Part shown: positions 2,692-61,189 of the stretch, piece by piece
How the letters are laid out: the number at the start of each line of letters is the position of its first letter
Numbering within the stretch: the stretch's first letter is position 1
NCBI GenBank assembly: GCA_000091205.1
Contig: AP006489.2
DNA length: 64,000 bases
Direction: 5' to 3' (one strand)
Origin: Cyanidioschyzon merolae
Lineage: Eukaryota
The notes under the pieces: generated by a model
What the model was told of the DNA's origin: nothing
Databases searched by the model: none
Seen by the model: only the letters and a program-made list of their open reading frames with translations
Made by a program: the position numbers and the translations under genes

Positions 2692-2752
2692 TTGAAGCGT
2701 CTAGGTAACGCTAGTCACCTAAACTTCCAGCGATCCTGCCAAGAACGTCGGT

Positions 2753-2788: not shown

Positions 2789-3119
2789 AAACCACAACGC
2801 AGCATGCTGCAGTGCAAACGGATTCAAAGGGAACACTGACCTATCTACTCGCTATATCGCTGCGTTTCTATCTTATTCAGACCTTTTTTAGTGTGCAGCC
2901 TTGGCATTCGCACGGAAGCAAGAGGGGTTTACGAAATCCTACCTAGTTTTGCGATTCTCGGTCGTTTTAGCGGAGTTGTGCCTTGGATGCTTTGTCGCTG
3001 GAATTCGTTACGTTAAGGAAATGAAGGTGATTCGCGTCGCCGTCGAGCAAGAGCTCCTTCAATGATCGATATCGGGACTTCATGCATACGTACTAACCTC
3101 TATTTTTCTCCGTTGCTTC

Positions 3120-3650
3120 AGCGTACAACGTGCAAATCAGGCATGCTTGGAGGTTTCGACCTCTCTATTTAAGGCTTCTCGTGAGTGCAGCTAATAACGT
3201 CACTGGACTCACGCGGAAATAATTCTTGACGACACCGACCATCGATGACTTGTTCAACAGCTCACGTCAAAAGATCACTGAGCTAATCACGTCAAATACT
3301 CGATTCCGTTCGACGGACATATCACCCCGTCTTCATGAACATGGAAGAGACAGCATTCCACAGCGGCATGACACCTCGCCGGGTAATACGCTCGAAAGGC
3401 TACCGTCTCCTCTGTTTGTACGGAAATTCGCCATGGTCTTGGATTTGAGTCATCATAACGACTGCGTCCAATGGGCAGTGCGTCACCGAGTTGCACGAAG
3501 TAAGCGTCGACGGGTCGTAATCTATCGACTTGTTCTCCGATATGGATTTTGCTTTCCGTGCTCGTTTCATCATAAACAACATTACACTCCACATTTATTC
3601 CATCGAATGGGACAGCGTACGCTTTCATGAGCAGCGGACAGCGTACTCGC
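3120..3650 (-). mobile_element. TnpB/Fanzor-like relic (C-terminal half: RuvC-II-like core, Cys-rich remnant, degenerate RuvC-III, conserved 3' tail)
   Basis: The minus-strand ORF 3287..4198 contains ...RCPLLMKAYAVPFDGINVECNVVYDETSTESKIHIGEQVDRLRPV...ARCHAAVECCLFHVHEDGVICPSNGIEYLT-stop. This aligns residue by residue with ORFs at 30342, 42272, 53025 and 59999. The nucleotide tail after the stop (3300 down to about 3120) is conserved with the other copies, including the box caagcatgcctgatttgcacg at 3131..3149. Confidence 0.5.
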
Positions 3651-3699
3651 CGAGGAGGTTGCCCACAACAACAAGTCCACGATCTTATTGTATGGAACC

Positions 3700-4037
3700 A
3701 AGCGCGGAAACGGAGCAGCGGGCATTGGAGGAAACCCAAAGTATCTGTCAAGGGCATGTACCGGGTGATGAAGCAATTCTTGACGCGCCACAAGGCGGCG
3801 CCCGGAAGAGTAGATACGGTGGACATATGGGAACACATGACGACAACCATATATAACCGCTGCAAGCGGCACACCTGGCCAGTATACAAAGGAGATGGAA
3901 ATGCCAAGCGAAGCGTCGATGCCAATGATCGCCTGTACATGAAATGCGTTGACATGAACTGGAAGCGGCGAAACCGCGACTCGAACGCCGCCATCAACAT
4001 CTTTCGACTGCCGAATACGAATCTGGAAGTAAAGTGA
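3700..4037 (+). mobile_element. TnpB/Fanzor-like C-terminal fragment with canonical RuvC-III, inverted relative to the adjacent relic
   Basis: ORF 3627..4037 reads ...DTVDIWEHMTTTIYNRCKRH...RLYMKCVDMNWKRRNRDSNAAINIFRL. The D-x-NAA-x-NI signature with a preceding YM(K/E)(C/F)V block matches the fragments at 17511, 31308(-) and 51624. Confidence 0.45.
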
Positions 4038-4242
4038 GAGACCGACGTATTTAAAGCTTCAAAAACGAGAGAGAAAAAGCCGGCAAAGACTGGTGTTGAT
4101 GATAATGGGTAACGACGAAAACCTGAGCATGTAACTCCTCCGTGCAAGCGGGACACGTTCCATTTCATCATGATACGGACGTCGTCCATACGTCTCAATG
4201 AACGTAACAGATCCGTTCCGTTTCATGCTGACACTGGTGTCG

Positions 4243-6615: not shown

Positions 6616-9600
6616 GAGGCCTTCGCCCCCGCGGACCGCGACAGTGTTTGTGCTCCAGACCTGGTCAAGTGGTATTGATCGCCTGCGAGGTGTATTTGAC
6701 ACGAGCTGCCCCGAATAGCGGCCTGTAGGCATGGTGAAACAAGCGAACGTATTGGACCGCTACGCCGAGTCGTAACGTATAGAGGAGCTCGTTATGTGCT
6801 CGGCATCGAGAGTTCTGGAATACATGTATCATCATGATCTTTTTGACTTTGTTCGTCGTTGTCTCGCGGAGGTATTGGACAAAGGGAATGAATCCTGTCG
6901 ATAGGGGGAAACGCCGCGGAAAGAATTCATGCTGGGGCTGCTCGCTTGCGAAAAACTGGTTCACTCGCCCAAGTCAGTCATTCTGGCATTCAGCACGTAC
7001 TTGAACCGAGCTTCTCGTGGCGCTGATGCCGAACCTCTTGCACCCAAAACGGAACCTGTCGTTCTCTATTTAGACAAATGTCTGACTGGTTGTCCATACA
7101 TTCCCGTCCGTAATTTCTTTGTGAAAACCTCTCAAAGAAGCCACAGGACGCGACTTTTTCGTACTAAGGATACGAAAAGTGACGAAGAGGCACTGATGGA
7201 CATAGGGAGAAAACGTGCTTCTACGGGACTCCGTCACGCGTTGCACAGCACACGAACACTGTTGTACTGAAACGCAAACGCTTCCCACACAATGGACGAG
7301 TGTTCGTCGCCCTGGACGTTACGCGATTCGAGAAAAACGCTCGACCTGTATACGGTACTCAAAGAGGTTTAGAACGCTGTCCGTACAGAAGATGCAAGCG
7401 AGCATGACAACAATAAAAGTCCTAGCGGCTCTTCAATGGTGCAATCGCCTACATATCACCAGGCGGAGAGGATCAATCGACATCTCATTGTTCCTTGACG
7501 CGTGCTTCGTGGCTTCTCCTTCCTCGGTGCTGCTGTCCTACTCTCGGACAAGGTCGCCGTCCATCAAGTAAAAGCGGTCATGCGGCACCCGACATACGTT
7601 GGCGTTGAGCTGATCTTCGTACCAGCTTCTGCGTTCTGGTGCAATCCAGTCGAAAACAGCTTGTCTAGTGCGAAGCGCCGGTTTTCGCGCCCACGGATCA
7701 ATAGATTGGTCAGTTGCACCCACGACGCTGAAAGCTGCAGGATGCCACTGAGGATCGCGTAGCTTTCTAGTCGAGGAAGGCTCGCCTAGCACTCATCGCC
7801 TCGACGCACCTCGTCAAGCAAATGTGCGTAAGTTTCTCGGACACACGGCATCGAGCTGTCCTTTTTCCACTCGAATTTTCTGATGAAATTTCCCTGCGAC
7901 AGTACAACGGATATTCGTTAGAAAGCACGCAACTCGATCTGATGTAATGATCAGAGGTTTGGAGGCACACTTCCCAGCATACCTTCAGACGTGGACGCGT
8001 CACGTTGTCAATTGAGGTAAACGATACAGCACAGGTGTGAAAAATTATTGAACAAGACTCAAAAAGCAAATCCATTTGCAGGTCAATGTCGAGCGATTCA
8101 TGAGGTCTGTCTCGTGAGCGTTGTACGCTCAACTCGCTGGTCCAAGAAACTGAAGACTACTTCAAGCGGATTCCTTAGGTGTCTATAGAGGCGAGTGGCG
8201 AGCTGGTGATGAAGCGCTCGAAATGGCAGCGAGTTCGGAAGAAAAGTCATTCCAACAGCGACAGTCGCTTCAGACCGTCCAAGCACATCCTAGTGTGCTC
8301 GGTGCCGGGCCGACGGACGTCACCTGCAGAGCATGGTTCAGACGTCATGCCTGCCTTGCTTGCATCCTGCGCTACTGCGTTTCCCAGAGGAGAGCCATCC
8401 CGGGGGGAATCGGATTTCCTTCCAGCATCCGAGCGTCTTGGCCTGACCGAGCGTCCACTGGATATGGTCACCAGTTGTCGAGTCAAGACCCATGAGATCA
8501 CCGTTGACATTTGTTTGTAGTAGTGCATGGACTCCACAGTAGGTCATGGTAGGTCTCTGTGAGCAAGCATGAAGCATTCGAACAAGATCGTGATGAGTAT
8601 GGCCGTACATCGTTCATGGCTCCTGGGCTACCGCGAGGACCTGGAAAGAGGTTCGCATTGGCGGTCAGGATCGACGGAATATCCAACTGAATGCACTCTG
8701 TGAAGTATAGACCTGAGTTCAGCACCGACACTCATTCTCATCCGTCCTAAGTAGCTGGACGTACGTAGAGAGGTTTCGTGGCGAGCATGCGTTTCGAGTC
8801 CAAGAACATCGTTGCCGTCTTCGCAGCTCTGATTCAAGAGGATAGAGCCAACGACGTGCATAGAACGCCAATGATGCTGCTCAACTTCTCCAAGGCTCTC
8901 TCTGATCGAGATTCGAGTCTGATGGACGCAAGAAGCCACACCAGCTACTGCAGTGAATGCATTGTGACCATCTCGACGCCCTGAGTATCGTAACGGGCAG
9001 AGACGGGGGATGCGCTGTGCGCCTCGTTCAGAGCGTTCACGAGCATCCACAGAGCTCATACCGCAAAATTTTGGCGATAGTGGACGAAACCGTGTTGTCG
9101 TCGCCGACATTGTCGGTTGTGCGGAGGCAACAAGCGTGCATTCACCAATATCTTCAAAGAGCTGGAAAAACTGAAGCCCATAACTCGCGTCCTTGGGTTG
9201 CAGTCTACGGCGCCAGACATGCCGCTGTGCGCAAGGGCCGTACTCGTGCCTCTTCCGCCAGAGCGTACAACGAATTCAGGAATCGATTCTATACGATTTT
9301 CATCGATGATATCGTGATTCTATCCACGCATCACGAGCAAGCGTGCACAATGAAACAGGTGGAGAGGCAGCGCTTGCAACAGAGCCGGATGGATAACGTG
9401 GTGGTGTACCGTACGCTGACCGAATGCCAGATAGCGAGACGATCGAAAAAGAGCGGCTTGCTGGTATGTGATTCAACCAGAAAACACACGCGGACGCATT
9501 TCCTGTACCGAGACTTGACCACCACGATCAACCTTCGGAAACGTCTTGCGCTTCCACAGCATCTGGCGGCTTTTTTTCGACAAAGCTTTCAAGCGAATCG

Positions 9601-10483
9601 TTTGGTACTCTGTGTGGGCATTGGGCTAAAATGCGCAAGTCCTTCGATGAAAACATCAGTGCTCAGGAGCGAGGGCATTGAATCGTCGCTTGGACCACTG
9701 AACTGGGGTTTTACGCTTCAGCTACCCAGCAAGGCTGCTACTGGGCTCACAGACACCTGGAACACCTGTCCTTGGCCATCGATGAACGATATTGGTGTTC
9801 CATTATTCGATATTGCAGCGTGTGCACGCTTGAAACCAACGCTGCATTGTTTCGATATAGACAGGATTACCTAGGCGAACTGACCAGACTCTGTACTTAC
9901 AGCATCCACAAAGATCTGCATCGCAACGGCAGCTGCTGGTATGGACCGGACACCTGAATAGCGACGACGGCTCCCTAAACCGATGCCGTGCAGTGCTTAA
10001 CAGGGATGCTACTGGACCAGCGCTGTCACCGTCACGAACAAAGTTTGAAGACGTGAATCGTTTCGACGCTTGTCACGGAGTCGTTGCCGGTCGGTACCAT
10101 CGTTGTCGTCGTTCGCACAGACTTGGTGTTGATCAGAGTTCGCGCATGCTCCGATTGTGCCCGTGGAGGACTCGCCACATACGATGCAATTTCTGAGTGC
10201 AGATGTCATCAGTCCAGCCCATGGATATTGCAATGGTTTTTCATCGCGCACTGACCAGCCGATGAACAAGCGACACACTTCTGGACGTGAGCGCAGGGTC
10301 TCCAGCGAGCAACCGAACAGCTGACGCTCGGGCGCCGTCCAGCGCACTGCCACCAACGGTCATCTGGAGACGACGGCGTTTCCCGCAAATATTGCTGACT
10401 GTTGGAGCGGTCGTAGACCTTGCGAGCCAGTGTGTTTCATTTGCGGCTTTGCAGGGCGCTCTCTGCTTCTACACCAGCAGCAA

Positions 10484-17350: not shown

Positions 17351-17510
17351 GAATCCCATGGAGCGGTATGTGCACGCAAGTCGAGGATCCTGAAGCGCTG
17401 TTACCGCCGGATGCCGAAAGAAAACGACAAAATCCTCTTCTCGCCGACCATGGAGCGAAGCAGACCAAATGACGAAAAAGAAGAAGAACGGTTGAGATAG
17501 GCCAGAAAAC

Positions 17511-22364: not shown

Positions 22365-23322
22365 AACTGGACTCGTGATTTGGACTAGCCGCGTTCGGAT
22401 ACACGAACACTGCAGGCTTATTATAGAGGAACTATCGGTAGTGCCTTTCCAGTCGCCATTGCAGCCAATACCGATCTCTACGCTCTCCGTGAATTAGACC
22501 CGTGATTCCAACCACACTCATTCGGATACTAGAACACTGCACGCTTGTTATAGAGGAACTATCGGTAGTGCCTTTCCAGTCGCCACCGCAGCCAATACCG
22601 ATCTCTACGCTCTCCGTGAATTAGACTCGTGATTCCAACCATACTCATTCGGATACTAGAACACTGCACGCTTGTTATAGAGGAACTATCGGTAGTGCCT
22701 TTCCAGTCGCCATTGCAGCCAATACCGATCTCTACGCTCTCCGTGAATTAGACTCGTGATTCCAACCATACTCATTCGGATACTAGAACACTGCAGGCTT
22801 ATTATAGAGGAACTATCGGTAGTGCCTTTCCAGTCGCCACCGCAGCCAATACCGATCTCTACGCTCTCCGTGAATTAGACCCGTGATTTCAACCATACTC
22901 ATTCGGATACTAGAACACTGCAGGCTTATTATAGAGGAACTATCGGTAGTGCCTTTCCAGTCGCCATTGCAGCCAATACCGATCTCTACGCTCTCCGTGA
23001 ATTAGACTCGTGATTCCAACCACACTCATTCGGATACTAGAACACTGCACGCTTGTTATAGAGGAACTATCGGTAGTGCCTTTCCAGTCGCCATTGCAGC
23101 CAATACCAATCTCTACGCTCTCCGTGAATTAGACCCGTGATTCCAACCACACTCATTCGGATACTAGAACACTGCACGCTTGTTATAGAGGAACTATCGG
23201 TAGTGCCTTTCCAGTCGCCATTGCAGCCAATACCGATCTCTACGCTCTCCGTGAATTAGACTCGTGATTCCAACCATACTCATTCGAATACTAGAACACT
23301 GCAGGCTTGTTATAGAGGAACC
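22365..23322. repeat. 127-bp tandem satellite, about 7.5 units
   Basis: The anchor gaattagac recurs at 22491, 22618 and 22745 (period 127). Units carry shuffled variant sites (cattgcag/caccgcag, cacact/catact, caggcttatt/cacgcttgtt, gacccg/gactcg). The ORF track shows no ORF of 60 aa or more across the array. Confidence 0.9.
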
Positions 23323-23424
23323 AGCTCTAGGTTCTTGGTACACACCTCAACCGCTTCCCTTATAGCTGCAACTGCATCATCGCGGCACTGGTGCTTCCGC
23401 TGAGAGCGCTCGCGTCCAGCGCGC

Positions 23425-26916: not shown

Positions 26917-28701
26917 TGTTCCCCTACAGACTACACCGCCAGGGCCTGCGGCAACAAACGCGCTGTAGAGGCAGCGCGTTTCTCCACGGCGATATGCGAT
27001 ATTTGCCGCCGCGTCCACGCACTGCACCATTGCGTACCGGGAGGCGATGCCTCGAACTGACTGTGCTCGACGAGTGTGCGGTTGATATCGGTTGCTGGAG
27101 GCACAAATTTCGAATTATCGGGCGACAGGTCCACGATCCTACTCCAGGCAAGTGCGACTCGGCTTGTCCGCCTGGTCATTGTGGCCCAGAGCGCGAGCGA
27201 GCGCCACCTTCCGGCGCCTGTGAGGCTGCCTCGGCCCCGGTACCACGACGTATGCAAGTTCCCGAAACGAGGTCCTCTATGCTACTGGTTGTCCACGTGA
27301 TCAGTCGGTGCCTGTGACTGAGCCTTCTCGATGACATTCGCTCTCGTCGATCATATTTTCGTGCTTCGCAGCGGCGCGTGCAGGCGAACGCTGCGATCCG
27401 GTGCGGCAACCTTGCAAGCGCGAATGCCCTGCTCTTGATAATTCGATGCTTTGCACGCGCAAACGGGTTTGAGTCACAACTATCTGCATAGGATCATGAA
27501 AGACGAACCGGTGCAATGAGGCATTCAGGAACGGGCGCACGGGCCTCGGAGTACCGGCTCTGAGCGGGCGATGTCGACGAGCGCGTCGTCAATACGCGAT
27601 TGCGACCAACTTGGGGCCGCAGCAAGCATCAGCGGCCTCTCTGGCAACGCATCGACAACGAGACGAGAGACTGCTCACGTTAGACGTGCAACCTGATTCC
27701 ATCGAGGCCATGGGAATCGCCAGACTCGATACAGGGTTGCGGGGCACGGCCGTCGATTCGCCTGCAACGACATACGACGCTGTTGCTGTTGCCCGGGACC
27801 ATGCCATCTTCAGAGCGAGCGATCGACTTTGAGCGGGGCCCTCACATCCGACCAGCGAACAACGTGTCAAACTCTTGGACTGGAACGCTCGTTCTTCGTA
27901 GCAGGTAGAGCGAAGCGCGATGATAACCCATCTCTAACCATAAAGTACCCTGCTCGCGTGCACGTCGTTGTCGCTTTCCTCGATGGCTTCCCGAACGCAA
28001 CACGCAAGCGTCTTGCAGCATGCATCTCCGTAGAACGTCGCTATGTCGCGAACCGACACGCACAAGGGTATAGGAAAGCTGTTTAGCCGCTGTGCTGCAT
28101 CTGTTCCAGCGGTTTGAGCGCTACGGCGGACGCTCCAAGCACGAACTCGGCGCACGATAGAACGTACAAGACGACCAGTGCATCTGGATGGGAGTATCAG
28201 CAATGCAGCTTGGAGGCAGGGTGCAACAACATCATGGACGCTTTCCCGAAAGCCTATTCCCATCCGAATCGCACTCTGGAGTCCGTGATCGAAGGCAACG
28301 TTTTGCGATCGGACGCGCAGATCCTCAATCGCCGCGCATGCATGCTCGTGTTGCCATGCCGCGCAAGTGCATTGCGCTGGGGCGGCGAGGCGCGCTTCTG
28401 TAACTGTGGCACATTTGTCTAATACAGGCGACGCGCCCCCGCAGCAGCCGCAGCGACTGCATATCGGGTCGAGCGGGCGTGCAGGCATACGCCACGAACG
28501 CTGGCGCATGCTCGCGTGACTGCGGGCATTTTTCAAGGTCGACTGTCGGAACGTACCGTAGTGGAGCTGCACACGGGCGTACCTCTCACTTGTTTGAGTT
28601 AACTGTTTGAAAACATAGCGCGTAATTGATCAGAGAGGGGTTCGGAGAGAAAGAGGGGTGAAACGCTGTCCTGGGCGCTGAATTATTCGCAGCACGGACG
28701 A

Positions 28702-29694: not shown

Positions 29695-29791
29695 GAGGGT
29701 ACCAGCATAAATCCGGTTTGCTCTTGTTTCTTTTGCGTTCAAAGAATGCCTGTCAGCAGACAGGGCTTTGGATGAGAGACGCGCAGTAACG

Positions 29792-29809
29792 ACTACTACT
29801 ACTGCTACC

Positions 29810-29850
<41 letters not shown>
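29792..29850. repeat. (ACT)n then (GCT)n trinucleotide array in the intergenic region after the Mpv17-like gene
   Basis: actactactactgctaccactactactactgctgctgctgctgctgctgctgctgc is visible directly. Confidence 0.9.
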
Positions 29851-29853
<3 letters not shown>

Positions 29854-30025
29854 CACAGATTTGGTCACGACTCGACTCGGACCTGCTAGGTTGTTCGTGG
29901 ATGCGGCATGGAAGCGGGCACATTGGCACTGGAGCAGTGCGCTGCAGCCTGAACCCGCAGGCTGTGACACCCGCACCAGCGTGAAATTGAACAGGCTCGC
30001 GTACTTAACTAGGGCATACATACCA

Positions 30026-31311
30026 AAGGCCGTTCTCTTGCGACTGTCAAAAATACCAGCCTTTGCGGAGCGGTTTTCGCGACTGTTTCCTTTTCTTCTC
30101 TCTTATCTCCGGATTTCTATACGATGGTCTCTCGTTTCACCCCAGCTCTGATGTCAGCTGTTGAAGGAAGCGGATGGCAGTGCTCAAATCTCGATCTCAC
30201 TGATTCCGGCGGTTTTCGACGACTCCTATGCCCGGGCATAAGTTGCCCGTGATGCTTCCCGTGCCATTTTCATCTGCTTGGTTTACAGACCGGGTGCGCA
30301 TGTCAGAGCGATGACAAGCCCTATGGTGGTCAAGTGTTCCCGTGTGTCCACCGAGCCTCCGTCTTGTAAATTCGCTCTGTGACTCGTACAGGCTTGCTTC
30401 ATCGCTCGGCATGTGTCCAGGTGAGGTGTATCGGACGCTCATCTGGATACCCGACTCCGTCTCCGCCTCCATCTTCGCAAACCGAGGCACTCTCCTACGA
30501 TCACGCGCTTCTTCTGAGCGATCCTCTAGGCGAGTTTCCTGCCCGCTGCACGAGCCAGTGTGCGCTGCCTCATTTGATATACGACTTGTGGACCGTGATG
30601 GTGTACGTGATGAAACAAGTACCGGAAAGAATATCCAAGTTGGAGACCAAGTCGCGAAATTCGGATCCGTCTACCCACTTGCCATGCAAACCAGTGACGC
30701 ATTTTCCAGAGGAAGGGATCGCTGCGAAGCCTGCAGTCCCAGCTCGAGACACTTGACGATGCAAACACATGAGACGGGAGCTTCTTGGAACACATCCTTT
30801 GACAAGGTTCCAGCTGGTTCCGCATCTGGTTTCATCGGTGGCTGCAAAGAATGGAGCACTGGTGTTTCAAGCGGAATCGCTCATTTGAGGTGAGAATCTC
30901 AGTGAGGGTTCGGTATGGGTTTTTTTTTCGGAGGACCGGTCAAGGACTGACGTCGCATCGTTTCCTTTTTTCTATGGACCTATCAGCGCGGAGCGGAACG
31001 TCCACGAGTTACCGTGAATGAGAAAACACCAAAGACTCGAAGCATGTGTGATTTGAGCGTGCCTCACACACGAGAAGCGGACGATTATGGTATGTAACGA
31101 GTCATTGTTCGAGGACGTCCGGAATCATGGTTATTTCGCTGATATCATGAATGCCGGGGACAACGCGTCCATAGAGCGATTCCGACGAGCCGAGCGAGAT
31201 TCCCAAAAGCACCAAAGAATCCGTAGGGCTTTATTCCAGCACTTTGAATAACAAGGCTGTGCATCGAAACAATTTTCGAAAAGCGTTGTATACGAGAAAC
31301 AGTGCGACTAG
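30026..31311 (+). mobile_element. Non-autonomous TnpB/Fanzor-like element copy A (1.29 kb; RuvC-II-like core to degenerate RuvC-III plus conserved 3' tail and hairpin box)
   Basis: ORF 30342..30893 reads ...RRVSCPLHEPVCAASFDIRLVDRDGVRDETSTGKNIQVGDQVAKFG...TSDAFSRGRDRCEACS...GVSSGIAHLR-stop. It is about 98% identical at the nucleotide level over its whole length to 59686..60972. The unit begins tctcttgcgactgtcaaaaatacc and ends gtgcgactagttcag. Confidence 0.6.
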
Positions 31312-31676
31312 TTCAGTGTTACATTATTATCCGATACCAGTGTAGACTTCAAAGAAGCGTTTGTGATGTGTGATCTGTGAAACCGAAAAATGTCCTTTCC
31401 CATCGAGGGTAAATGTAGATCCACTTGCAGACGCGAGCCAGCCTTTTCTGACATGCCGACTGCTATCGGTTTAGGTTTCTCCTTGCAGACTTCGAGTATT
31501 AGACGCTGCACCATGGAGTTCGCTTGCGTCATCTCCTCGGATCTCGTCTTCAGCGTCACACAGTTTCTGGTATTCTCAGCAGCGTTGAAGTTTCGATTCA
31601 CGAACTCCATGTATTTCTCGCTGCTGCTCGTACTCATCAATGGAAGCATTCCCCGAACTTTTGCCCTCCGAGCCAC
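31308..31676 (-). mobile_element. TnpB/Fanzor-like C-terminal fragment (minus strand), abutting copy A
   Basis: MARRAKVRGMLPLMSTSSSEKYMEFVNRNFNAAENTRNC...QANSMVQRLILEVCKEKPKPIAVGMSEKAGSRLQV is colinear and roughly half identical to 51624..51887 (MEWRAKVPGLLALVSTSGGKKRMEFMNLDFNAAINIRRS...). Confidence 0.5.
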
Positions 31677-32095
31677 TTGCGTCTTGTCATTGTCCCGTGG
31701 GGCGAAGAGCTTTGCTCGCCCAGCGCCCGCTTCTTCTTCTTCTTCTTCGTTACTCGGCTATCTTCGCTCGACGGTCGAAGAGAAGGGCATGTATTCCCTT
31801 TGTTTCTGGCCTCCTGGATCCTCGCTTTCCATGTCGACACCTTTCCCTTGGATTTTTATTTCTTCAAATGAATGCACTTTGAATGTTTCTACTATAAAAG
31901 GCTAAAAAGCATTTGATGCCACGCACCTGGGCATGGAGCACAACTGAGCTGAAAGACCACAGCGAAGCAGCATCATCCTCCAGGCTGCTGGAACGCCGCT
32001 CTAGCCTTCAACACCTCATCTTCCTAGACGCTGCTTTTGCGGCAACCGCGGCTGCCGCATGACCTAACCATAGCTCATGTTCACTACCTCTCCGA

Positions 32096-34713: not shown

Positions 34714-36189
34714 CTACGGAGCAGCAAAAGGCTCCGAATCATCGGGACCACGCCGATGCCACCTGTTTTGTGGATAGAGAAGCAGCGCCTGTCGATCCCA
34801 CGAAGCGATCATACCGGGTTTTGCTTCGTCCTTCCAGATCTCCGTCGAACACGGTGGCCTGATGCAGCGCACCAGCACCGTCTCGTTCACTGTTTCGTAC
34901 GAGTCTTCGAGGCCGTACCCGCTGTCCTGGATGAGCCAGTCTCCGGGTCGCCACAGCTGACTCGCGTGCCGCAGCGCACAGTTCTCTGGTCGGCCGACGC
35001 TAGCATAAAAGTTGAAACCAGGTGCTTCGTGGCGGTAATACACCGCCTGCTGCTGCTGCTGCTGCTGGCGGTTGCGTTGACCGTACCCATAACCGAGGCG
35101 AGCCATATGGTATCGCCAACATCCTTCGATGTGCCGCAACATGGCAGCCGGCGCCCGTTGTAGCGCTGGACTGCCCACGAAATGAACGGGGAAAAGCACC
35201 GACGCTCGACAGGGGTAGGTATGGGCGTAACGCAGGAGCAACTCTGGTGGAGCACTCGGGAACGCGGCATGCAGATACAGAAGGTGCCACAGAGCGGTCT
35301 GGTCTAGACTCGCTTGCGGCCACTGGGTGCCCAGTGCGATCCAGTTCCGCACAAATTGCAAGGATTCCGGTGTATTACGGAGGAGAAACGCTCCCGAGTT
35401 AATCTCGGGTCCATCGTGAACGACCACGTAGTGCTCTGGACTGATTCCTTGCAAGAACGTCTGGACCGGAATCGAAAAGTTCGTGATCACTGCATCCACA
35501 TCAACGTACATGAACCAGTCGTACGGAGCGTCTTGCTTCAGTAGACGCTCAAGTGCGAAGAGGCGATTGTAGTGCGGTGGTAGAGGTTGTCCTGGTTCGG
35601 CGTGTCGCTCGGGTGTCGCAGCGACCTTCAACCAGTGATACGGATAGGAATCGAGTAGAAAATCGACTGTCGCTGACCATTTCTTGGCGTAGAGAACTTT
35701 GTTCTGAACCGCGTACGCAAACCGTCGGGCATACGCTGCCGTTGTCGTGCTGAGGAGCGCCACCCGAGGCAGCTGGGTTTCGTGCCCAGCCCCAGGCCAA
35801 AGTGCTCTTGGAGTGCGTTTGCGCGTCAGGGAATAACTACTGCGACTGATGCCTAATTGACATCCTATCCAAGAGCCGATAAGACAACAGGCAACAACGA
35901 AGGCGACGGTCCGACCGACTCGACGGCGTAGGTGACGCTTCATTACCGCTTCAAGCGGCGACGCCTGGTAAGGAACAGCGGTCCCGGCGGTGTCGTTTTC
36001 TGTAGCACTGGGGTTGCAGGCGCCTCGATGCAGGCCGTGGAGGCGTCTAGTGTTGCCACTGGCACGTGTACGGTTTCCCGCAGGTTCAAGAGGCGTTCGT
36101 AAGGACCCGGTTCGTACGCCTACGAGTCCGCGAAAGCAGGACGTGTAACGGACACCAGCTCGAGCAGCAGAACGGACTTTAAGGGGCAA
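34714..36189 (-). CDS. Family GT34-like type-II membrane glycosyltransferase (galactosyl/xylosyl/mannosyl-transferase family)
   Basis: TM anchor TVAFVVACCLIGSWIG. Catalytic region: KVLYAKKW...DWFMYVDVDAVITNFSIP...HDGPEINSGAFLLRNTPESLQFVRNW. The true start is probably the internal Met (MKRHLRRR...) near 35943. Confidence 0.7.
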   Translation of the reverse strand: MPLKVRSAARAGVRYTSCFRGLVGVRTGSLRTPLEPAGNRTRASGNTRRLHGLHRGACNPSATENDTAGTAVPYQASPLEAVMKRHLRRRVGRTVAFVVACCLIGSWIGCQLGISRSSYSLTRKRTPRALWPGAGHETQLPRVALLSTTTAAYARRFAYAVQNKVLYAKKWSATVDFLLDSYPYHWLKVAATPERHAEPGQPLPPHYNRLFALERLLKQDAPYDWFMYVDVDAVITNFSIPVQTFLQGISPEHYVVVHDGPEINSGAFLLRNTPESLQFVRNWIALGTQWPQASLDQTALWHLLYLHAAFPSAPPELLLRYAHTYPCRASVLFPVHFVGSPALQRAPAAMLRHIEGCWRYHMARLGYGYGQRNRQQQQQQQAVYYRHEAPGFNFYASVGRPENCALRHASQLWRPGDWLIQDSGYGLEDSYETVNETVLVRCIRPPCSTEIWKDEAKPGMIASWDRQALLLYPQNRWHRRGPDDSEPFAAP

Positions 36190-41560: not shown

Positions 41561-42039
41561 GCGATGGACGCACTAGAAAGCGGACGGAACCTGACAGACC
41601 TTGCGCACAAGTCACACTTGTGTAAACAACCAACGTTCATGTGCGAGGAAGCATCTGGAGTATGTCACACGCGTCGTTACGCGCGTGCCGCTGTCGTCGG
41701 TGCCAGCGGGCCGGCGCATGCCTTGCTGCACCCGCCGCAGATGCGATACGCGTGTCTAATGATGACAGAACACGGAGCTGCTGCTTGCTCGGTACCTGCA
41801 CGTGGATTCTGTTTCAGAACTTGCTCTAGGCGGACATCATCGACATTTGGAGTGCAGCGATAAAGGCCTAGGGATTCAGACGTGGGTTAAGGGTTCTCGG
41901 TCTTCTGTTCGAGGTGGCTCGTTCGACGCCTCACCGCTGGAATGCTCTATCTGGTCAGCGACACGATGATTCGCTACGCTCTTGGACAGGAATGCATAAA
42001 CGATCCGATATATGGATCGAATGGATACGTATAAGCACC

Positions 42040-42757
42040 GATACCTCTACGCTGCCCACGAGTAGCATGCGTGAATCATGCATGCTTCAATGTTGCGATC
42101 TGTTTGCATGCGACTCATGGGCGCTGCAATATGCGGCGCTGGATCGACACGCAAACAACACGAAGGCGTCCTTTCATGCTTTGTTCTCAAAACTGCGGCC
42201 AAAAAGTTCATTGTACGTGTCGCGTCGAATGAGCAGTTGGTTTCGAAAGACAGATCCCCTTCTCTTTGCGGTCATCGACGAACGACGTTCCGCGGTAGCG
42301 CGACACATTTCACGGAATATGCTCGCAGAGGTTCCCGCTGCTTCTTTTTGCGTGCGAATGTGTCTTGCACTCGAACTTGAATCACTGCAACGATTGCTTC
42401 CAGTGGAGCATGCGTCGTCGCTTTGCGCGCGAACGGCGTCCAGACGGATCGAGGTGTCCCGACATGTTCTCCAATCTGGATTTTCATTCCGGTGCTTGTT
42501 TCGTAAATAACGACATTGCGTTCCGTAAATGCCCTGTCGAATCGAACAGCAGGCTCTGATGTGCGCAGCGGATAAAGCGTTCGCTCATGGGATCGTCCAG
42601 AAGACGCCCGTGATCGTACGATATGGAATGGGTCGCGAACCCAGAGCAGGATATCCCGGGAAGCCTCATGTACCCGCCAAGGGCATATCCCGAGCGATGG
42701 ACCGAGCGTACACGAGAAACAGAGCAACCCCCGGAAGAGGATGCATGGTGGACACAC
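42040..42757 (-). mobile_element. TnpB/Fanzor-like relic copy D (RuvC-II-like core plus downstream hairpin box)
   Basis: ORF 42272..42757(-) reads ...YPLRTSEPAVRFDRAFTERNVVIYETSTGMKIQIGEHVGTPRS..., aligning with the CPL..FD..VEC.VVYDETSTGK.I.IGEQV core. The box gaagcatgcatgattcacgcatgctactcg (reverse complement of 42061..42090) lies downstream. Confidence 0.45.
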
Positions 42758-43676
42758 CTGGGGACGCCTGACCGCAGTTCAGTGTCACCGCTTCGATAAT
42801 CTCCGCATATACCTTCGGTGCGACCTTCGCAGCGGTGCCCAAAATGTAGATCGCGTCTTTTGGCTGTGCATCAAGTTCAGCGACAACAGCCGAAAGCGGA
42901 AAAATCTGCACCTTATAGACGCTATCCATGCGCTTCGACCCATGACAACGAAGGTGAAGCGCACGGAGAGAATTTCGTGCAGTGAACCAGAAAGAACTGA
43001 TGGGAAAAGGAAGCAGTTGAAGAAGAAGTCTGCAAGAGCCGGAGTTGATAACCATAGGAACACAACAAAACCTGAGTACGTACATCCGAGCATGGCAAGT
43101 GGACCCATTTGCTTTTACACGTTCATATACGCATGTGTAGGCAGCTTGACGAAAGCGTCCCATGCTGGTGCCAACGCGGAAGCGCCCCGCGTGTGCGAGT
43201 TCCCGTTGATACTCAGCGCCCTTCAGGGTGCAGTCAGGAGCCCGGTGCACGCATGTCTGCGCAGACCCGTCAAATCCCAACCGACGAGACGTCATACACG
43301 AACTCCGAATGAAGTGCGCGTCCAACCGATGCGCTTCAAGGCACAGGAACGCGATTCCGTGTCCGAGCGGTGATCGTTGGTGTGTCGCATCGGGCGTCGC
43401 CGGCTGAGCTGGGCATTCGGAGAATCCATAGCCCTGGATCCAGCCTGCATTACCGTTGGTAGGACTGGCATGAGGCTGACGAAACGTTTTCATAGCTCGA
43501 GAGGAGCCATGGCGCTCGATTTCCCGGCTGAAGGCAGCAGCGCAGGCGCCCTCGCGAAATGGGCGCTCTCCATGCCGCGGGCGTCTGCCGCTCGACAACG
43601 AGATTCCTGGTAGACGAAACATGATATGTATCATATGCGACAATCATGAATCTTTCAGTCACCTGCGGACAGAGGC

Positions 43677-51887: not shown

Positions 51888-53024
51888 ACATATACGCTCT
51901 GGGTCTCACGGAAGCAAATGCAACGATGCGCTGTCCATTGGCGATACGCTGCACGCGTTTCAGGCAACGAAGGTCGCTGCTGTGAGTCACGGCAGCATCG
52001 ATGCCCACGAGAAAGGCAGTTCGATGCAACAACCTCACACCACACAGGATCGTTCTCTGCGGACAAGGCGAATCGTTCACACTGCTGCTCGGTGCCGGAT
52101 TGGCTTCAGATGCCGGCGATGATCTCTCCTCGTTCATCAGCGTCGACAGCAATCCGAGTCGCCCCGAGTCCGGGCACTGAATCGATGCAACTGTGGCGCA
52201 ACCATGTCAGATACTGTGTCGCGTTAGCCGTGAAGCCCGAACATGCAGTCATGTATGTGATGGTCTGCATCCAGTGACTGCAGCACTGCATCGGGGCGCT
52301 TTCGGGGCGTGCACAGGTGCCTCTGGGTCGATGATCCTGGCGAGCGGCGAGACGTCCGCGAGCATCCTCGCAGCGAAACAATGGTGATAGATGCGTCATC
52401 CTCGCATGGCTGCGTCCTCGCGAATAGCGTCGAGCGCGCTTGCCATGAGGCTTACCAGCATCGACCGAACAGACCAAAATCCCCAGAGGAAGGTACGGTC
52501 AAGGGCCCACGGGAAGCATTGGTGGTAGAATGCGGGCTGATGATTGATTCCCTCGATGCCGATACGCATCGCACGCGGAGGAACTCCATATCAAATGAAA
52601 CGATCCAAGTTTTCGTCACGTGAGCGAAAAGTGCAACAGGCTCGCATCGTCGGGCATACACGCTCAAGTTTGCGTCGCTTCCTGGTGTCATGAACAACAG
52701 CGTTCGTATGCGTTTTCTGAGATTGCTTCTTTTTCCTCTCTCATATTTCCGGCTTCAAACTACGTCGGTCTCTATTGTCCATCCAGGCTCTGTTGCCAGC
52801 AGTCGAATGACGTTCTTAGCCGCGGAAACGTTCCGATTTCGCTGCTTGCCGCTGTTGTCGACGCATTTCAAGTAACGGCGGTCGTTGCGATCCATGGTTC
52901 GATGGCCAGTTTCATCTTCTCTCTACACAGCCTCGGAGCGCCTTTTGTGGCGGCCAAACTTGGCAGTGATCAGGCGTTCTCGAATGTCCGCTAAACCTCC
53001 TGCTCCTCGTACGGGCGCCGCTCT

Positions 53025-53700
53025 GTGGCACGAGAATGCATGCTTCGCCTCTCAGCACATGCACTTGACGAACGCAGGAGGCTACCCTCGATGTCTGTCT
53101 CCGGTTTCCGCGCCCGACGGTATACACCGGGATCACAGGCTTCCTGTTGGCGAACTCCGCAAAGCGCTCTCTGTCCGTTGAACGCGCCTGCGAACACTGT
53201 TCCAATCGATGAAGGATGTGTGGAATGCGAAATTCTCCTAGATGAAACAACTACAGGAAAGAAAATCTTGGCTGTAGAACAAGTCGATAGATTTCGATCC
53301 GCTGACGTTTTTTAGGTAAAAAACGGTAACGCATGCTCCACTGGAAAGCATCGCTGCGGTGGTTCAAGTTCGAGTCCAGGACATTTTTCCGTGCAAACAC
53401 GAGAAACGGGAGCCTCCTTGAGCACACCCTTTGACAAGTACCATGATGCTGTCGATCGCCGCGTTCTCGATGGCTACTAAGAACCGAGGATTTGTGTTTC
53501 AAACGGAATCGCTTGTTTCAGGTGAGAATCTCAGTGAATTTTCGGTACGAGGGTACGACCTAGCCGTCAATGGATAACGTGGCGCTTTTTTCATCGTCAA
53601 TCTAGAGGCACAGAGCGCTGCGCCCTCGAGTTGCCTTTGTACAGAAAGTTCGAGAACTTGAAGCATGTGTGATTTGAGCATGCTACTCGAAATGACCGAA
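53025..53700 (+). mobile_element. TnpB/Fanzor-like relic copy C (RuvC-II-like core plus conserved tail and hairpin box)
   Basis: ORF 53025..53315 reads ...LCPLNAPANTVPIDEGCVECEILLDETTTGKKILAVEQVDRFRSADVF. The tail gtgtttcaaacggaatcgcttgtttcaggtgagaatctcagtga (53497..53540) and the box gaagcatgtgtgatttgagcatgctactcg (53660..53692) are shared with copies A, B, D and 1. Confidence 0.5.
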
Positions 53701-54845
53701 AAAAATCGAGGCTTGACAGTTTAAACTGGATCGTAATACTGGTCAATTTACGAACCTGTGTGCGACAGCGCCGCGAATCCTATTCATGCTGATGTCATAA
53801 CGAATTCCAGCAGAAGAAGCGTTGAACGGGTCACGCAGAGAACAAGATCATAAATCCTAAAACAACATATGGATCTGCACGCCCCTATTGCTGCACCACG
53901 AACATGGAGGCTGTCTATGTAAAAAATTTGGAAGAAAATCAAACAGCAGGAGCAGAGCGAACACTTCCGAGTTCCCTTTTCATCTGACAAATGGGTAAAC
54001 GAGGAAACAAATGCGGTTCCGCGACGGGCGCACCAATCGATCCTGACCCTGCGACGTACACCGCCGCGAGATACGTTTTGTTTTCCGGTGCACGATCGAT
54101 GATCCTGACTCTAAGAATCCCTCTGAAACCGCAGTTGCTGTCGGCAGTTCGGGAAACGACCGCTGTATCCCTCCAGGCCCTTGTCCATTTCACTGACGCT
54201 GGGACGGTCTATCCGTCAGAGATACGCTCTAGAGGGATCGAGTGAGCCGCCAGATGCCGAGCTTGCATAGGCGCTCGCAACAACGCAGCATTCGCCAACT
54301 CTCTGCATGCTCATCTGGGGATAGGATCGCTCTGCGGTGCCTGCATACCGGCATCGGGTCAAGCAGCATAATACGGTGCTTGCACTTGTCCATGACAATC
54401 ATTCAGCGTGCTCATCGATTCTACGCGATCGATGTTTTGGAAAGAGCGCTCGTTTTCATTCTGGTTTCTGATGCGCACAACCGGAGCCTTTGATCGACCT
54501 GGAAACAGTAGATCCTCGACAGCGTGGATCTGCGACAAAACGTCTCCTGGGCAATACTCGCGTTTTACCGTTGCTTGTGTCGCGTTATACCTGAATGCTG
54601 CCGTGCGCCAGCGTTCATGCGTCGGGACATTGCGGCGCTGGAGACCGCATTCTGTACAGCATCAGTTCGATGAATCGAACGACATGTTCCCAGATGCACG
54701 AGTGCTGGCGCGTACCCGGCACCAGGGCGCCATCTCAACGCAGGCGAATGCTCCGGATCCCGAACGAGAGCGAAGACATATCAGAGTCCGTCCAGTTTTG
54801 CGTTGCATCACGCAGCACGTCGGCAGCATATCCTCGAGTACATCC

Positions 54846-59391: not shown

Positions 59392-59685
59392 GGTCCATGC
59401 TTTTCAAACGGCGCTCTTGCTGCGTCTTGAACCGCCGTTCTGCGGCCTGATGTAAGCGCTTCGTAGTCCAAGGGGACGTGCAGGATACGCAACTGCGTCG
59501 ACCTAACGACGTCGCGTTGGGTGAAGGTCCCCGTAGCTGCGTAGCTGTGGCCGGCTATGCGCGGCCAGGCGAAGCGCAAGTCCTTCCCTAGGAGGCCAGC
59601 AGTTTGATCAACTTGTATCGCCTGTACCGTACGATACGCTAATGAAACCGGTTAACTTTGCGAACTCGGGTGTGCATGCTATAGT

Positions 59686-60972
59686 TTGAGTCTCTTGCGA
59701 CTGTCAAAAATACCAGCCTTTGCGGAGCGGTTTTCGCGACTGTTTCCTTTTCCTCTCTCTTATCTCCGGATTTCCATACGATGGTCTCTCGTTTCACCCC
59801 AGCTCTGATGTCAGCTGTCGAAGGAAGCGGATGGCAGTGCTCAAATCTCGATCTCACTGATTTCGGCGGTTTTCGACGACTCCTATGCCCGGGCATAAGT
59901 TGCCCGTGATGCTTCCCGTGCCATTTTCATCTGCTTGGTTTACAGACCGGGTGCGCATGTCAGAGCGATGACAAGCCCTATGGTGGTCAAGTGTTCCCGT
60001 GTGTCCACCGAGCCTCCGTCTTCTAAATTCGCTCTGTGACTCGTACAGGCTTGCTTCATCGCTCGGCATGTGTCCAGGTGAGGTGTATCGGACGCTCATC
60101 TGGATACCCGACTCCGTCTCCGCCTCCATCTTCGCAAACCGAGGCACTCTCCTACGATCACGCGCTTCTTCTGAGCGATCCTCTAGGCGAGTTTCCTGCC
60201 CGCTGCACGAGCCAGTCTGCGCTGCCTCATTTGATATACGACTTGTGGACCGTGATGGTGTACGTGACGAAACAAGTACCGAAAAGAATATCCAAGTTGG
60301 AGACCAAGTCGCGAAATTCGGATCCGTCTACCCACTTGCCATGCAAACCAGTGACGCATTTTCCAGAGGAAGGGATCGCTGCGAAGCCTGCAGTCCCAGC
60401 TCGAGACACTTGACGATGCAAACACATGAGACGGGAGCTTCTTGGAACACATCCTTTGACAAGGTTCCAGCTGGTTCCGCATCGGGGTTTCATCGGTGGC
60501 TGCAAAGAATGGAGCACTGGTGTTTCAAACGGAATCGCTCATTTGAGGTGAGAATCTCAGTGAGGGTTCGGTATGGGTTTTTTTCGGAGGACCGGTCAAG
60601 GACTGACGTCGCATCGTTTCCTTTTCTCTATGAATCTATCAGCGCGGAGCGGAACGTCCACGAGTTACCGTGAATGAGAAAACACCAAAGACTCGAAGCA
60701 TGTGTGATTTGAGCGTGCCTCACACACGAGAAGCGGACGATTATGGTATGTAACGAGTCATTGTTCGAGGACGTCCGGAATCATGTTTATTTCGCTGATA
60801 TCATGAACGCCGGGGACAACGCGTCCATAGAGCGATTCCGACAAGCCGAGCGAGATTCCCAAAAGCACCAAAGAATCCGTAGGGCTTTATTCCAGCACTT
60901 TGAATAACAAGGCTGTGCATCGAAACAATTTTCGAAAAGCGTTGTATACGAGAAACAGTGCGACTAGTTCAG
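59686..60972 (+). mobile_element. Non-autonomous TnpB/Fanzor-like element copy B (about 98% identical to copy A at 30026..31311)
   Basis: Same termini and internal sequence as copy A. ORF 59999..60673 is identical to A's ORF except for a few substitutions (for example GKN to EKN) and a +1 insertion near 60483 (gcatcggggtttcatc against gcatctggtttcatc) that shifts the C-terminal frame. Confidence 0.6.
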
Positions 60973-61189
60973 CCTTCTAGTTTCATCGAAGACGAATGCG
61001 TCGTAAGCACTGATGCTGGACAGCATTGCTGCCGCTGCAGCACTCTTTGTCTACGTATCGTCCACTGAATAATCAGTTCGTGTGCAGACGGAGTGCTCAG
61101 GCCGCTCAGTGTCGCAGCCTAAGTTGCTCCGTTTGCGTTTCATCGTAAACTGGTTCGCAGACCGCTAGAGCCGCACCTGCTATCGGGTT

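Follow-up and report, generated by a model that had tools for sequence, protein, structure and literature searches.

Internally deleted relatives of Tc1/mariner-Fanzor1 transposons probably account for a dispersed repeat family in Cyanidioschyzon merolae

Fanzor1 proteins are TnpB-like RNA-guided nucleases of eukaryotes, and the genome of Cyanidioschyzon merolae is known for very few transposons. CMe-1A is the sole Fanzor1 family listed for C. merolae (PMC3627910). It has a 3169-bp consensus (Bao & Jurka 2013, Mobile DNA 4:12; PMC3627910) and ∼150 copies about 70-80% identical to this consensus, it shares its 5' region with TE-N2_CMe, and its classification was called unknown (Bao & Jurka 2013, PMC3627910). 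Tc/mariner elements with Fanzor1 are represented by PUl-1 from Pythium ultimum and PGv-1 from Phaeocystis globosa virus, and the Fanzor1 motif was given as D-X(125-275)-[TS][TS]-X-X-[C4 zinc finger]-X(5-50)-RD (Bao & Jurka 2013, PMC3627910). In Fanzors RuvC-II is rearranged: Gly or Pro takes the place of the canonical Glu, and an alternative Glu follows ∼45 residues later (Jiang et al. 2023, PMC10530073).

We analysed a 64-kb window of C. merolae 10D (the whole stretch of 64,000 nucleotides), in which encoded proteins are identical to BAM79637.1 and BAM79638.1 of this strain. It contains about 11 decaying Fanzor/TnpB-related pieces. An earlier note on this DNA had described them as one dispersed family; the repeats are indeed present at all places that it listed but, judged by their sequences, are separate families, CMe-1A and a second one that we call family A. 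It is very likely that family A consists of internally deleted Tc1/mariner elements with a Fanzor1 gene, while the other RuvC-III fragments belong to CMe-1A. The window would then hold what is left of three or more lineages of composite DNA transposons, each with a Tc1/mariner-type DDE_3 transposase gene followed by a Fanzor1 gene on the same strand. This element type, mariner-Fanzor, is already known; for C. merolae, family A and the link to a transposase appear to be undescribed. The features of the five family-A copies are as follows.

29966..31345 (-): copy A, 1380 bp, enclosing the interval 30026-31311 of the earlier note
about 31325-30531 (-): copy A, transposase remnant
30819-30851 (-): copy A, D1 motif FFAATDETRCG
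30573-30617 (-): copy A, D2 region CFITYTITVHKS
about 30560-30585: copy A, deletion junction
30585-30074 (-): copy A, Fanzor1 C-terminal remnant
30167-30196 (-): copy A, RuvC-III DRDLSTAIRF
31317-31345 and 29966-29995: copy A, terminal inverted repeats, decayed
59621..61000 (-): copy B, with transposase remnant at 60716-60188
60242-59731 (-): copy B, Fanzor1 C-terminal remnant, with RuvC-III remnant at 59824-59853
52616..53997 (-): copy C, with transposase remnant at 53758-53163 and Fanzor1 C-terminal remnant at 53217-52788
52800-52838 (-): copy C, RuvC-III, drifted to NRNVSAAKNVIRL
41744..43120 (+): copy D, with transposase remnant at 41992-42583 and Fanzor1 C-terminal remnant at 42532-43025
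2807..4183 (+): copy E, the best preserved
3062-3649 (+): copy E, transposase remnant, with FIINNITLHIYSIEWDSV at 3566-3619
about 3600-3620: copy E, junction
3598-4058 (+): copy E, Fanzor1 C-terminal remnant, containing the ORF 3627-4037 with a zinc-finger remnant
3972-4007 (+): copy E, RuvC-III NRDSNAAINIFR

Like PUl-1 and PGv-1, family A belongs to a type with a mariner-type transposase and Fanzor1 between inverted repeats, a likeness of layout. Full-length Tc/mariner-Fanzor1 members measure about 3.4-3.8 kb, and the intact relative found here has 3478 bp with TA at both junctions, whereas the window copies are 1.38-kb internal-deletion derivatives in which both genes are truncated and decayed. 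As in other non-autonomous DNA transposons with internal deletions, the termini are kept, the middle is lost and amplification followed the deletion, as one junction is found in eight copies; in contrast to typical MITEs, family A is much longer (1.38 kb) and still holds recognisable pieces of two genes. With bacterial TnpB (IS200/IS605, IS607; OMEGA) it shares a homologous C-terminal half of RuvC and zinc ribbon (PF07282), and the relative P0095 gives a weak match to the NCBIfam model guided_TnpB. Unlike bacterial TnpB, these elements have a eukaryotic host, a long N-terminal region, a DDE transposase instead of TnpA as partner and, like every Fanzor (PMC10530073), a RuvC-II in which Gly stands for the Glu and a later Glu is the alternative.

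Since a word-indexed protein search with frameshift-corrected alignment gave no matches, an exhaustive search was needed to place the Fanzor half. With HMMER the ORF at 3627-4037(+) retrieved 92 proteins at E<=1e-3, including intact ones of 376-756 aa. These intact relatives carry the Pfam TNB domain PF07282 (P0095, 34.1 bits at a cut-off of 26.3) and the motifs LDPGRVNLY, GYGTG, VWEY.TTQKCHRC and RNRDFNAAINI, they show homology to the CMe-1 family (hhalign 98.1%, E 7.5e-14), and their HMM finds each of the five copies, always on the strand opposite to that read in the earlier note. The ORF of copy E alone matches PF07282 with 20.6 bits, which is under the threshold. A family-A consensus, built on four independent lineages, matched the Fanzor1-like relatives with 148.9 bits, a BLASTP E of 3e-25 and an hhalign probability of 99.9% (E 2.6e-32). 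The nearest intact Fanzor proteins are about 33% identical to family A and come from partly virus-like metagenome contigs; PDB sequence searches found nothing.

The Fanzor part of family A begins at profile column ∼536, downstream of RuvC-I (LDPG, at ∼column 425), and therefore the first Asp of the Fanzor motif is deleted. Of the complete Fanzor1 motif, which is present in the intact relatives, family A has TT..C, the second Cys pair and RD partly left. The rearranged RuvC-II is seen in the relatives (GYGTG, then VWEY about 42 residues on), in the family-A consensus (VYGVGRG ... VDTREH) and in CMe-1 (AYGAG ... VDEF). The RuvC-III Asp is kept in copy E and in copies A and B (DRDLSTAIRF in both), while the motif drifted in copies C (NRNVSAAKNV) and D, as pseudogenes would.

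P0167, the closest multi-copy intact relative, sits in an element of 3478 bp that occurs with 99.5-100% identity in at least five different contexts, and a gene for a 317-aa DDE_3 protein lies 72 nt upstream of it. This protein matches copy C in tblastn (E 3e-6) and the family-A consensus in blastp (E 2e-16, 29% identity, residues 51-227), with an alignment that spans AIDETAF and FIKNNITFHKS. In a profile-profile comparison (hhalign) the transposase half reached 97.2% against DDE_3 (E 4e-11). In Pfam the consensus scores below the DDE_3 threshold (15 bits, E 0.022), and the putative assignment to a transposase is based on comparison with specific relatives. The D, D, E/D triad is incomplete: the consensus retains D1 (DET), most copies have drifted at D2 and show N or K there, and the third residue falls in the deleted segment. 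We rejected a reading of the 5' half as the Fanzor RuvC-I region ('SIDG' as RuvC-I, 'RFRLKH' as the following helix), because hhalign finds no Fanzor signal in frame 1 to the left of YRMGQRT (0.3%, compared to 99.9% to the right) and frame 2 is DDE_3.

When the termini of all five copies (ten ends) are aligned with the two of the 3478-bp element, they form a single imperfect inverted repeat of ∼30 nt with the pattern TA-CAC...(A/G)AA..G.AACA. An automatic search for inverted repeats did not report the family-A termini, which are decayed. TA is found at about 4 of the 10 window-copy ends and single-base variants (GA, TG, GT) at others, while intact relatives show C-TA[element]TA-G at 3 of 3 complete junction pairs; at a fourth locus the left junction is available. 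Helitron-like ends (TC...CTAG) were considered and rejected.

In the arrangement that we propose for family A, the 5' inverted repeat would be followed by transposase residues ∼1-230 with the first two catalytic motifs, a deletion of ∼2.1 kb, the last ∼165 residues of Fanzor1 and the 3' inverted repeat. The retained Fanzor1 part would comprise the RuvC-II-equivalent GYG.G region, the alternative Glu, the zinc-finger remnant, RuvC-III and a basic tail, the deletion having taken the third catalytic residue of the transposase and the RuvC-I Asp of Fanzor. The shortened element probably spread after the deletion, mobilised in trans (cut-and-paste) by an autonomous relative, and the copies would since have decayed neutrally to about 65-70% identity. 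Copy A (30033-31315) is about 70-72% identical to 53241-53547, 3479-3654 and 42387-42502 (E 1e-33 to 2e-10). Because the catalytic residues are deleted and in-frame stops and frameshifts are present in all window copies, the family-A copies encode nothing functional; none of them has an intact ORF for an RNA-guided nuclease. The 3' end of family A is no more conserved than the remaining element, and there were no Rfam matches in any family across the whole window.

The earlier note had read the (+) frame of copy A as the sense frame of a TnpB/Fanzor core, with a RuvC-II block and a replaced RuvC-III Asp, representing a catalytically rearranged lineage. With ORFs of 183, 224 and 303 aa this frame is rather open, and by eye it looks conserved. 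A rearranged RuvC-II does characterise the Fanzor class (PMC10530073), but the known rearrangement affects the RuvC-II Glu and not the RuvC-III Asp. In the (+) frame hhalign gave 0.16% and 0.07% against the two Fanzor families and BLASTP an E of 4.8, while the opposite strand of the same DNA matches DDE_3 (97.2%) and Fanzor (99.9%), so that this reading is refuted and has next to no probability left; the sense strand of all five core copies is the opposite one. The core copies had also been aligned with the RuvC-II block of the 49.7-51.9 kb copy, to which they are not homologous (no match by protein, profile or consensus). The shared block (30570-30653(+) in copy A, 3527-3613(-) in copy E) is base for base the opposite strand of the DDE_3 motif DL.S.(L/M)DF..G.CFI.NNI.FHKS.IEWDSV, and what was called a 'RuvC-II-like block' is the antisense of the region around the second catalytic Asp of the transposase. 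Likewise, the alleged RuvC-III ends with a stop three codons later (GVSSGIAHLR at 30861-30890(+), PSNGIEYLT at 3290-3316(-)) are antisense transposase sequence just upstream of the first catalytic motif. Frame-specific conservative substitution could not be reproduced, since conservation is equal in all six frames: with per-frame conservation and codon-position periodicity as a stand-in for dN/dS, the amino-acid identity between copies is 33-35% in each of the six frames, and there is no 3-base periodicity. No frame shows a coding signal, since the copies appear to have diverged neutrally. By codon usage the supposed sense frame ranks fourth of six, in a scoring that does not separate the true sense from the codon-aligned antisense. 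The absence of homology to RuvC-II/III and the equal conservation of both strands are the two outcomes that the earlier note itself had named as contrary to its claim.

Two further explanations concern how family A arose and how copies A and B became so similar. Mariner and Fanzor fragments might have been joined by chance, e.g. by nested insertion and truncation, and then duplicated as a block; C. merolae material yielded no full-length progenitor of family A, and transposon relics in the window do adjoin, such as the CMe-1A fragment that abuts copy A. However, the two halves lie on the same strand in the order of intact elements, the DDE_3 protein with the best match is encoded next to the multi-copy Fanzor relative that matches best, and family A is bounded on either side by matching inverted repeats that resemble those of the intact element. 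The length fits one deletion of the 3478-bp element (3478 bp minus an inferred ∼2064 bp gives about 1414 bp; about 1380 bp is observed), and the same junction and length occur in all five window copies and in three more on other Cyanidiales-like contigs, which makes eight copies at unrelated loci with a common junction. We therefore regard a chance joining as quite improbable. Copies A and B are 98.5% identical over about 1284 nt (30033-31315 and 59691-60972). A recent transposition of the 1.3-kb element, which would mean that a source of transposase is still active in C. merolae, could explain a tract with sharp boundaries that covers 93% of the element, and the homology of the flanks past the tract is weak, with A-left against B-left not significant. 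Yet 67 nt and 30 nt remain between the tract and the element termini, as these are set by the other copies and by the inverted repeats of the intact element. In these outer parts either copy can still be aligned to the family (HSP 52650-52810 / 59666-59825), but A and B are no closer to each other than any two members. In the flanks A-left against C-left is the one comparison that is individually significant, its score being reached by 0 of 300 shuffles, and in JGI metagenomes a scan with 22-mers turned up no more near-identical copies, the matches being orthologues of A, B and C only. While a recent transposition is thus unlikely, the confinement of the 98.5% identity to the element interior points to ectopic gene conversion between A and B over 1283 bp, a reading that depends on the weak flank homology.

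The remaining relics of the window are CMe-1A pieces, a DDE_3 relic with CMe-1A-like pieces and a third relic.

48799-51881 (+): CMe-1A copy, near full-length, frameshifted (consensus 9-3092, 79.5% over 3104 nt)
31517-31957 (-): CMe-1A internal-deletion derivative abutting copy A (consensus 790-936 joined to 2828-2994)
28049-28311 (-): CMe-1A 5' fragment, 75% to the 5' 253 bp of the consensus
5934-6018 (-): small CMe-1A piece
about 16865-17262 (+): DDE_3 relic (Pfam 37.3 bits, cut-off 28.6)
17378-17431 (consensus 916-969) and 17615-17800 (consensus 2906-3091) (+): CMe-1A-like Fanzor pieces
7502..9631 (+): third relic, far more diverged and not in the list of the earlier note
7502-7696 (+): third relic, DDE_3 remnant (Pfam 23.2 bits at 7534-7693)
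7720-9631 (+): third relic, nearly full-length Fanzor1 pseudogene directly after the DDE_3 remnant

The copy at 48799-51881 shows the motifs GADPG (RuvC-I), VVAYEAG and DFNAAINIRR (RuvC-III). It and the fragments at 17.4-17.8, 31.5-31.96, 28.05-28.31 and 5.93-6.02 kb belong to CMe-1A, with about 70-80% identity to its consensus. The four C-terminal RuvC-III fragments of the earlier note proved to be real TnpB/Fanzor C-termini: in tblastn the 49.7-51.9 kb copy matches 31416-31685(-) with an E of 3e-18 and 17553-17798(+) with an E of 7e-15, and the ORF at 3627-4037(+) matches PF07282. The fragment at 3700-4037(+) is not separate from the core copy at 3120-3650, as had been thought, but the 3' half of copy E on the same (+) strand. 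The derivative at 31517-31957 corresponds to the fragment previously placed at 31308-31676(-). Altogether, the picture of a window littered with decaying Fanzor/TnpB relics stands in general, but not in its specifics of frame, RuvC-II and RuvC-III.

CMe-1A and family A share one genome, and the Fanzor part of family A is a distant homologue (hhalign 98.1% via intact relatives), but the two show no detectable DNA or HMM similarity. The CMe-1A consensus did not match the five core copies in blastn (word size 7, E<=0.01), nor did an HMM of the CMe-1 family from 38 sequences or the protein of the 49.7-51.9 kb copy. A direct comparison of family A with the CMe-1 family by hhalign gave a weak match in RuvC-II alone (E 0.036), and the link is visible solely via the intact intermediates. 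Family A has a DDE_3 remnant and inverted repeats and CMe-1A neither; no DDE_3 trace was found in the CMe-1A consensus. Transposase relics nevertheless lie directly 5' of the CMe-1A-like Fanzor pieces at 17.4-17.8 kb, which follow about 20 nt past the stop of the DDE_3 relic, and of the third-lineage Fanzor pseudogene, and a DDE_3 gene is also located upstream of P0036, an intact CMe-1-related Fanzor. These transposase relics and the identical gene order in an intact relative suggest a Tc1/mariner-Fanzor1 descent for CMe-1A. An inverted-repeat search around the relics at 7.5-9.6 kb and 16.9-17.8 kb gave one tentative pair of termini (6434-6449 / 9968-9983). We propose, with the chances evenly balanced, that C. 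merolae has a second Fanzor1 family, represented only by ∼1.4-kb derivatives in which two-thirds of a Tc1/mariner transposase are joined to the final quarter of Fanzor1, and that CMe-1A too comes from a Tc1/mariner-Fanzor1 element, maybe of giant-virus-like origin.

Our analysis corrects a tempting misreading, since what looked like a Fanzor lineage with a replaced RuvC-III aspartate is only antisense transposase sequence. For GC-rich genomes this calls for caution, as the antisense of a decayed gene remains open and appears conserved. It also provides a plausible assignment to the Tc1/mariner superfamily for C. merolae Fanzor elements that were unclassified in 2013, and it adds a second Fanzor-derived repeat family to the genome of this organism, a modest gain.

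When the ends of all copies of the repeat, here called family A, were aligned with those of an intact relative, a common inverted repeat emerged, decayed and some 30 nt long, with TA or a form of TA changed at one base before it. This alignment fixed the limits of five family A elements (copies A to E), each about 1380 bp long with inverted-repeat ends:

2807-4183, (+), element E
29966-31345, (-), element A
41744-43120, (+), element D
52616-53997, (-), element C
59621-61000, (-), element B

Copy A matches copy B (59691-60972) with 98.5% identity over 1284 nt and pieces of copies C (53.2-53.7 kb), D (42.3-42.8 kb) and E (3.4-3.9 kb) with about 70%, confirming the dispersed repeat described in the earlier note. 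That note took the (+) frame of copy A as the TnpB/Fanzor sense frame, arguing that one frame was conserved and the other strand radically changed. A per-frame check of conservation gave no coding signal. Substitutions between the copies had no 3-base periodicity and amino acid identity was 33-35% in all six frames, so the copies diverged neutrally, an outcome that the note itself had named as refuting its reading; in the family A consensus the true frame and the antisense frames are nearly open alike. Judged from these alignments, the sense strand is not decidable from divergence between copies and is settled by external homology.

On the (+) strand of copy E, opposite to the earlier choice, the ORF 3627-4037 reads ...VDTVDIWEHMTTTIYNRCKRH...YMKCVDMNWKRRNRDSNAAINIFR and has a sub-threshold match to Pfam TNB. 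Searched exhaustively with HMMER, 1.84 billion representatives yielded 92 proteins matching this ORF at E<=1e-3. The intact ones among them (376-756 aa) carry a TNB domain over the Pfam cut-off and all Fanzor1 motifs; hhalign shows them to be homologues of the CMe-1 family (98.1%, E 7.5e-14). An HMM from five intact relatives matched all five window copies, each on the strand opposite to the one chosen earlier. The frameshift-corrected consensus scored 148.9 bits (BLASTP E 3e-25 against the intact relative P0126; hhalign 99.9%), while the earlier frame gave no Fanzor signal (BLASTP E 4.8; hhalign probability 0.16% and 0.07%).

Among intact relatives present in several copies, P0167 (765 aa) is the closest. 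Its gene belongs to a 3478-bp element found with 99.5-100% identity in five or more contexts, in each of which a transposase gene (317 aa, Pfam DDE_3, Tc1/mariner-IS630) is located 72 nt upstream of the Fanzor gene on the same strand. The ends are imperfect inverted repeats with TA at the sequenced junctions, and this DDE_3 plus Fanzor1 element is apparently active. Since the complete junctions (metagenome contigs L016-L021) read C-TA[element]TA-G, they suggest CTAG as its target. On these contigs the neighboring genes (ankyrin repeats, lipase, DNA polymerase A, Skp1) resemble those of giant viruses or protists. On two further contigs (L009, L015) other intact Fanzor relatives of family A adjoin Peptidase_S74-containing giant ORFs, an RNA ligase, an ATG8-like gene and a UvrD helicase, a mix which suggests large DNA viruses.

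The 5' half of family A was considered as a Fanzor RuvC-I region and this was ruled out, frame 1 left of the motif YRMGQRT having no Fanzor signal (0.3%). Right of it the signal is 99.9% (E 1.9e-34, profile columns 536-673), and this split therefore places the transposase/Fanzor junction at about 30560-30585 in copy A and about 3600-3620 in copy E. Profile-profile comparison of the 5' half with DDE_3 gave 97.2% (E 4e-11). Frame 2 of the consensus aligned with residues 51-227 of the 317-aa transposase (29% identity, E 2e-16), spanning the first (AIDETAF vs AIDETGF) and second catalytic motif (FIKNNITFHKS vs LMDNIAFHKS), and a further match of the transposase (53693-53214, E 3e-6) falls within copy C, on the strand of its Fanzor part.

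These assignments relocate the motifs of the earlier note. Its RuvC-II-like block (30570-30653(+) in A, 3527-3613(-) in E) comprises the same bases as DL.S.LDF.SG.CFI.NNI.FHKS.IEWDSV on the opposite strand, the region of the second catalytic Asp of the transposase. GVSSGIAHLR (30861-30890(+)), read as a degenerate RuvC-III, is antisense just upstream of the first catalytic motif, FFAATDETRCG at 30819-30851(-) in copy A. True RuvC-III remnants are found elsewhere:

3972-4007, (+), copy E, NRDSNAAINIFR
30167-30196, (-), copy A, DRDLSTAIRF
52800-52838, (-), copy C, NRNVSAAKNVIRL
59824-59853, (-), copy B, DRDLSTAIRF

Replacement of the RuvC-III Asp is not borne out, as the true remnants keep it in three of five copies and the rest simply drifted. 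In Fanzors, which are RNA-guided nucleases, Gly or Pro stands in place of the RuvC-II Glu, and some 45 residues further on comes an alternative Glu (Jiang et al. 2023, PMC10530073). Precisely this pattern is present in the two C. merolae lineages as well as in their relatives (AYGAG...VDEF; GYGTG...VWEY); therefore the sole rearrangement here is the published class-wide one, in RuvC-II and not in RuvC-III. The repeats do exist and are related to Fanzor, but their striking RuvC-II/III reading is an artefact of reading the transposase antisense.

The halves of family A are homologous to transposase and Fanzor, with strand, order, junction and termini in common. Three more copies, on other Cyanidiales-like contigs with flanking eukaryotic genes, are alignable across the same junction. 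A 3478-bp element stripped of residues ~229-317 of the transposase, the spacer and residues ~1-575 of Fanzor would measure about 1414 bp, near the observed ~1380 bp. We propose that a single internal deletion gave rise to a non-autonomous element, that an autonomous relative may have mobilised it in trans, and that all copies would have decayed neutrally after their spread. Because the deletion takes out the Fanzor RuvC-I Asp and the third catalytic residue of the transposase, none of the copies can be active. With family A, a known element type (Tc1/mariner-Fanzor1) gains a new member, a dead one.

Copies A and B, 29.6 kb apart, are otherwise old (~70%) members; their 98.5% tract (30033-31315 / 59691-60972, 1283 bp) falls short of the termini by 67 nt and 30 nt, and outside it they still align to family A, not especially to each other. 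A scan of metagenomes for one conserved 22-mer found orthologues of A, B and C only. We favor ectopic gene conversion over recent transposition with moderate confidence, because the flank evidence is weak.

The window is eukaryotic in character, with few introns and a G+C content of about 55%. Three of its ORFs match database proteins exactly, two being annotated in C. merolae 10D (BAM79637.1, BAM79638.1). The repeats are intergenic among ordinary host genes (kinase-PP2C, PPR protein, aspartate-semialdehyde dehydrogenase, UvrB-like, FMO-like). The UvrB-type gene, a 931-aa ORF at 45923-48718(-), carries the full bacterial-type set of domains within a eukaryotic nuclear genome; presumably this repair gene came from an organelle. 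About nine copies of a 127-bp unit (93-94% identity) form a tandem array at 22235-23423, just upstream of the aspartate-semialdehyde dehydrogenase gene. A second array at 54755-55663 (87-bp unit of 29 codons, about ten copies, 97-98% identity) probably encodes a repetitive protein, because it lies within long overlapping ORFs (54408-55881). A GCN/ACN triplet run at 29768-29930 (poly-Ala/Thr or poly-Ser by frame) adjoins the 3' end of copy A and has 21-mers in common with 35047-35067.

G, the fuller copy (49.7-51.9 kb), is a TnpB/Fanzor-like gene broken by frameshifts, in which the motifs GADPG, VVAYEAG and DFNAAINIRR occur. Its reconstructed protein retrieved 38 relatives of 370-750 aa and, in the window, C-terminal fragments at 31416-31685(-) and 17553-17798(+) and a very divergent copy at 8969-9589(+). 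The family of G is already published as CMe-1A, and in this part so is the finding: a C. merolae Fanzor1 family whose roughly 150 copies each share about 80% identity with a consensus of 3169 bp, with a 734-aa Fanzor1 protein, without inverted repeats and of unknown classification (Bao & Jurka 2013, PMC3627910). The consensus, taken from the supplementary file of that study, aligned with:

48799-51881, (+), copy G, consensus positions 9-3092, 79.5% identity
31517-31680 and 31808-31957, (-), internal-deletion derivative
17378-17431 and 17615-17800, (+), internal-deletion derivative
28049-28311 and 5934-6018, (-), isolated 5' fragments

This 5' region is common to a separate ~635-bp element, TE-N2_CMe (Bao & Jurka 2013, PMC3627910). 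The relation of the core copies to G drawn in the earlier note found no support in the window, where copies A-E were matched neither by the G protein nor by the CMe-1A consensus or an HMM of the 38 relatives.

Two other Fanzor relics are immediately preceded by matches to the 317-aa transposase (16894-17211, 7505-7654). The transposase relic at 16865-17262(+) is better preserved than any other in the window: its Pfam DDE_3 score of 37.3 bits exceeds the threshold, and its ...NPVEG... motif is kept. It lies directly upstream of a CMe-1A-like fragment (17.4-17.8 kb) on the same strand, with about 20 nt from stop to Fanzor start. A third, very diverged relic absent from the earlier list (7502-9631(+)) consists of a DDE_3 remnant (23.2 bits) and, directly after it on the same strand, a nearly full-length, highly diverged Fanzor1 pseudogene (7720-9607(+), HMM of the 38 G relatives). 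A 16-nt inverted pair (6434-6449 / 9968-9983, 88% complementary, 3550 bp from end to end) may represent its termini or may be a chance match. Upstream of P0036, an intact Fanzor related to CMe-1, there is likewise a DDE_3 gene, which matches both window relics (E 1.6e-13, 1.6e-11).

No transposase trace was found in the CMe-1A consensus. Because DDE_3 lies directly upstream of Fanzor in two window relics and upstream of it at P0036, the data suggest, without proving it, that CMe-1A branched off as a non-autonomous form from Tc1/mariner-Fanzor1 elements, a type already described in other organisms and viruses (Bao & Jurka 2013, PMC3627910). The transposase relic at 16865-17262, with its stop so near a CMe-1A-like Fanzor start, hints at such a derivation for the "unclassified" CMe-1A family.
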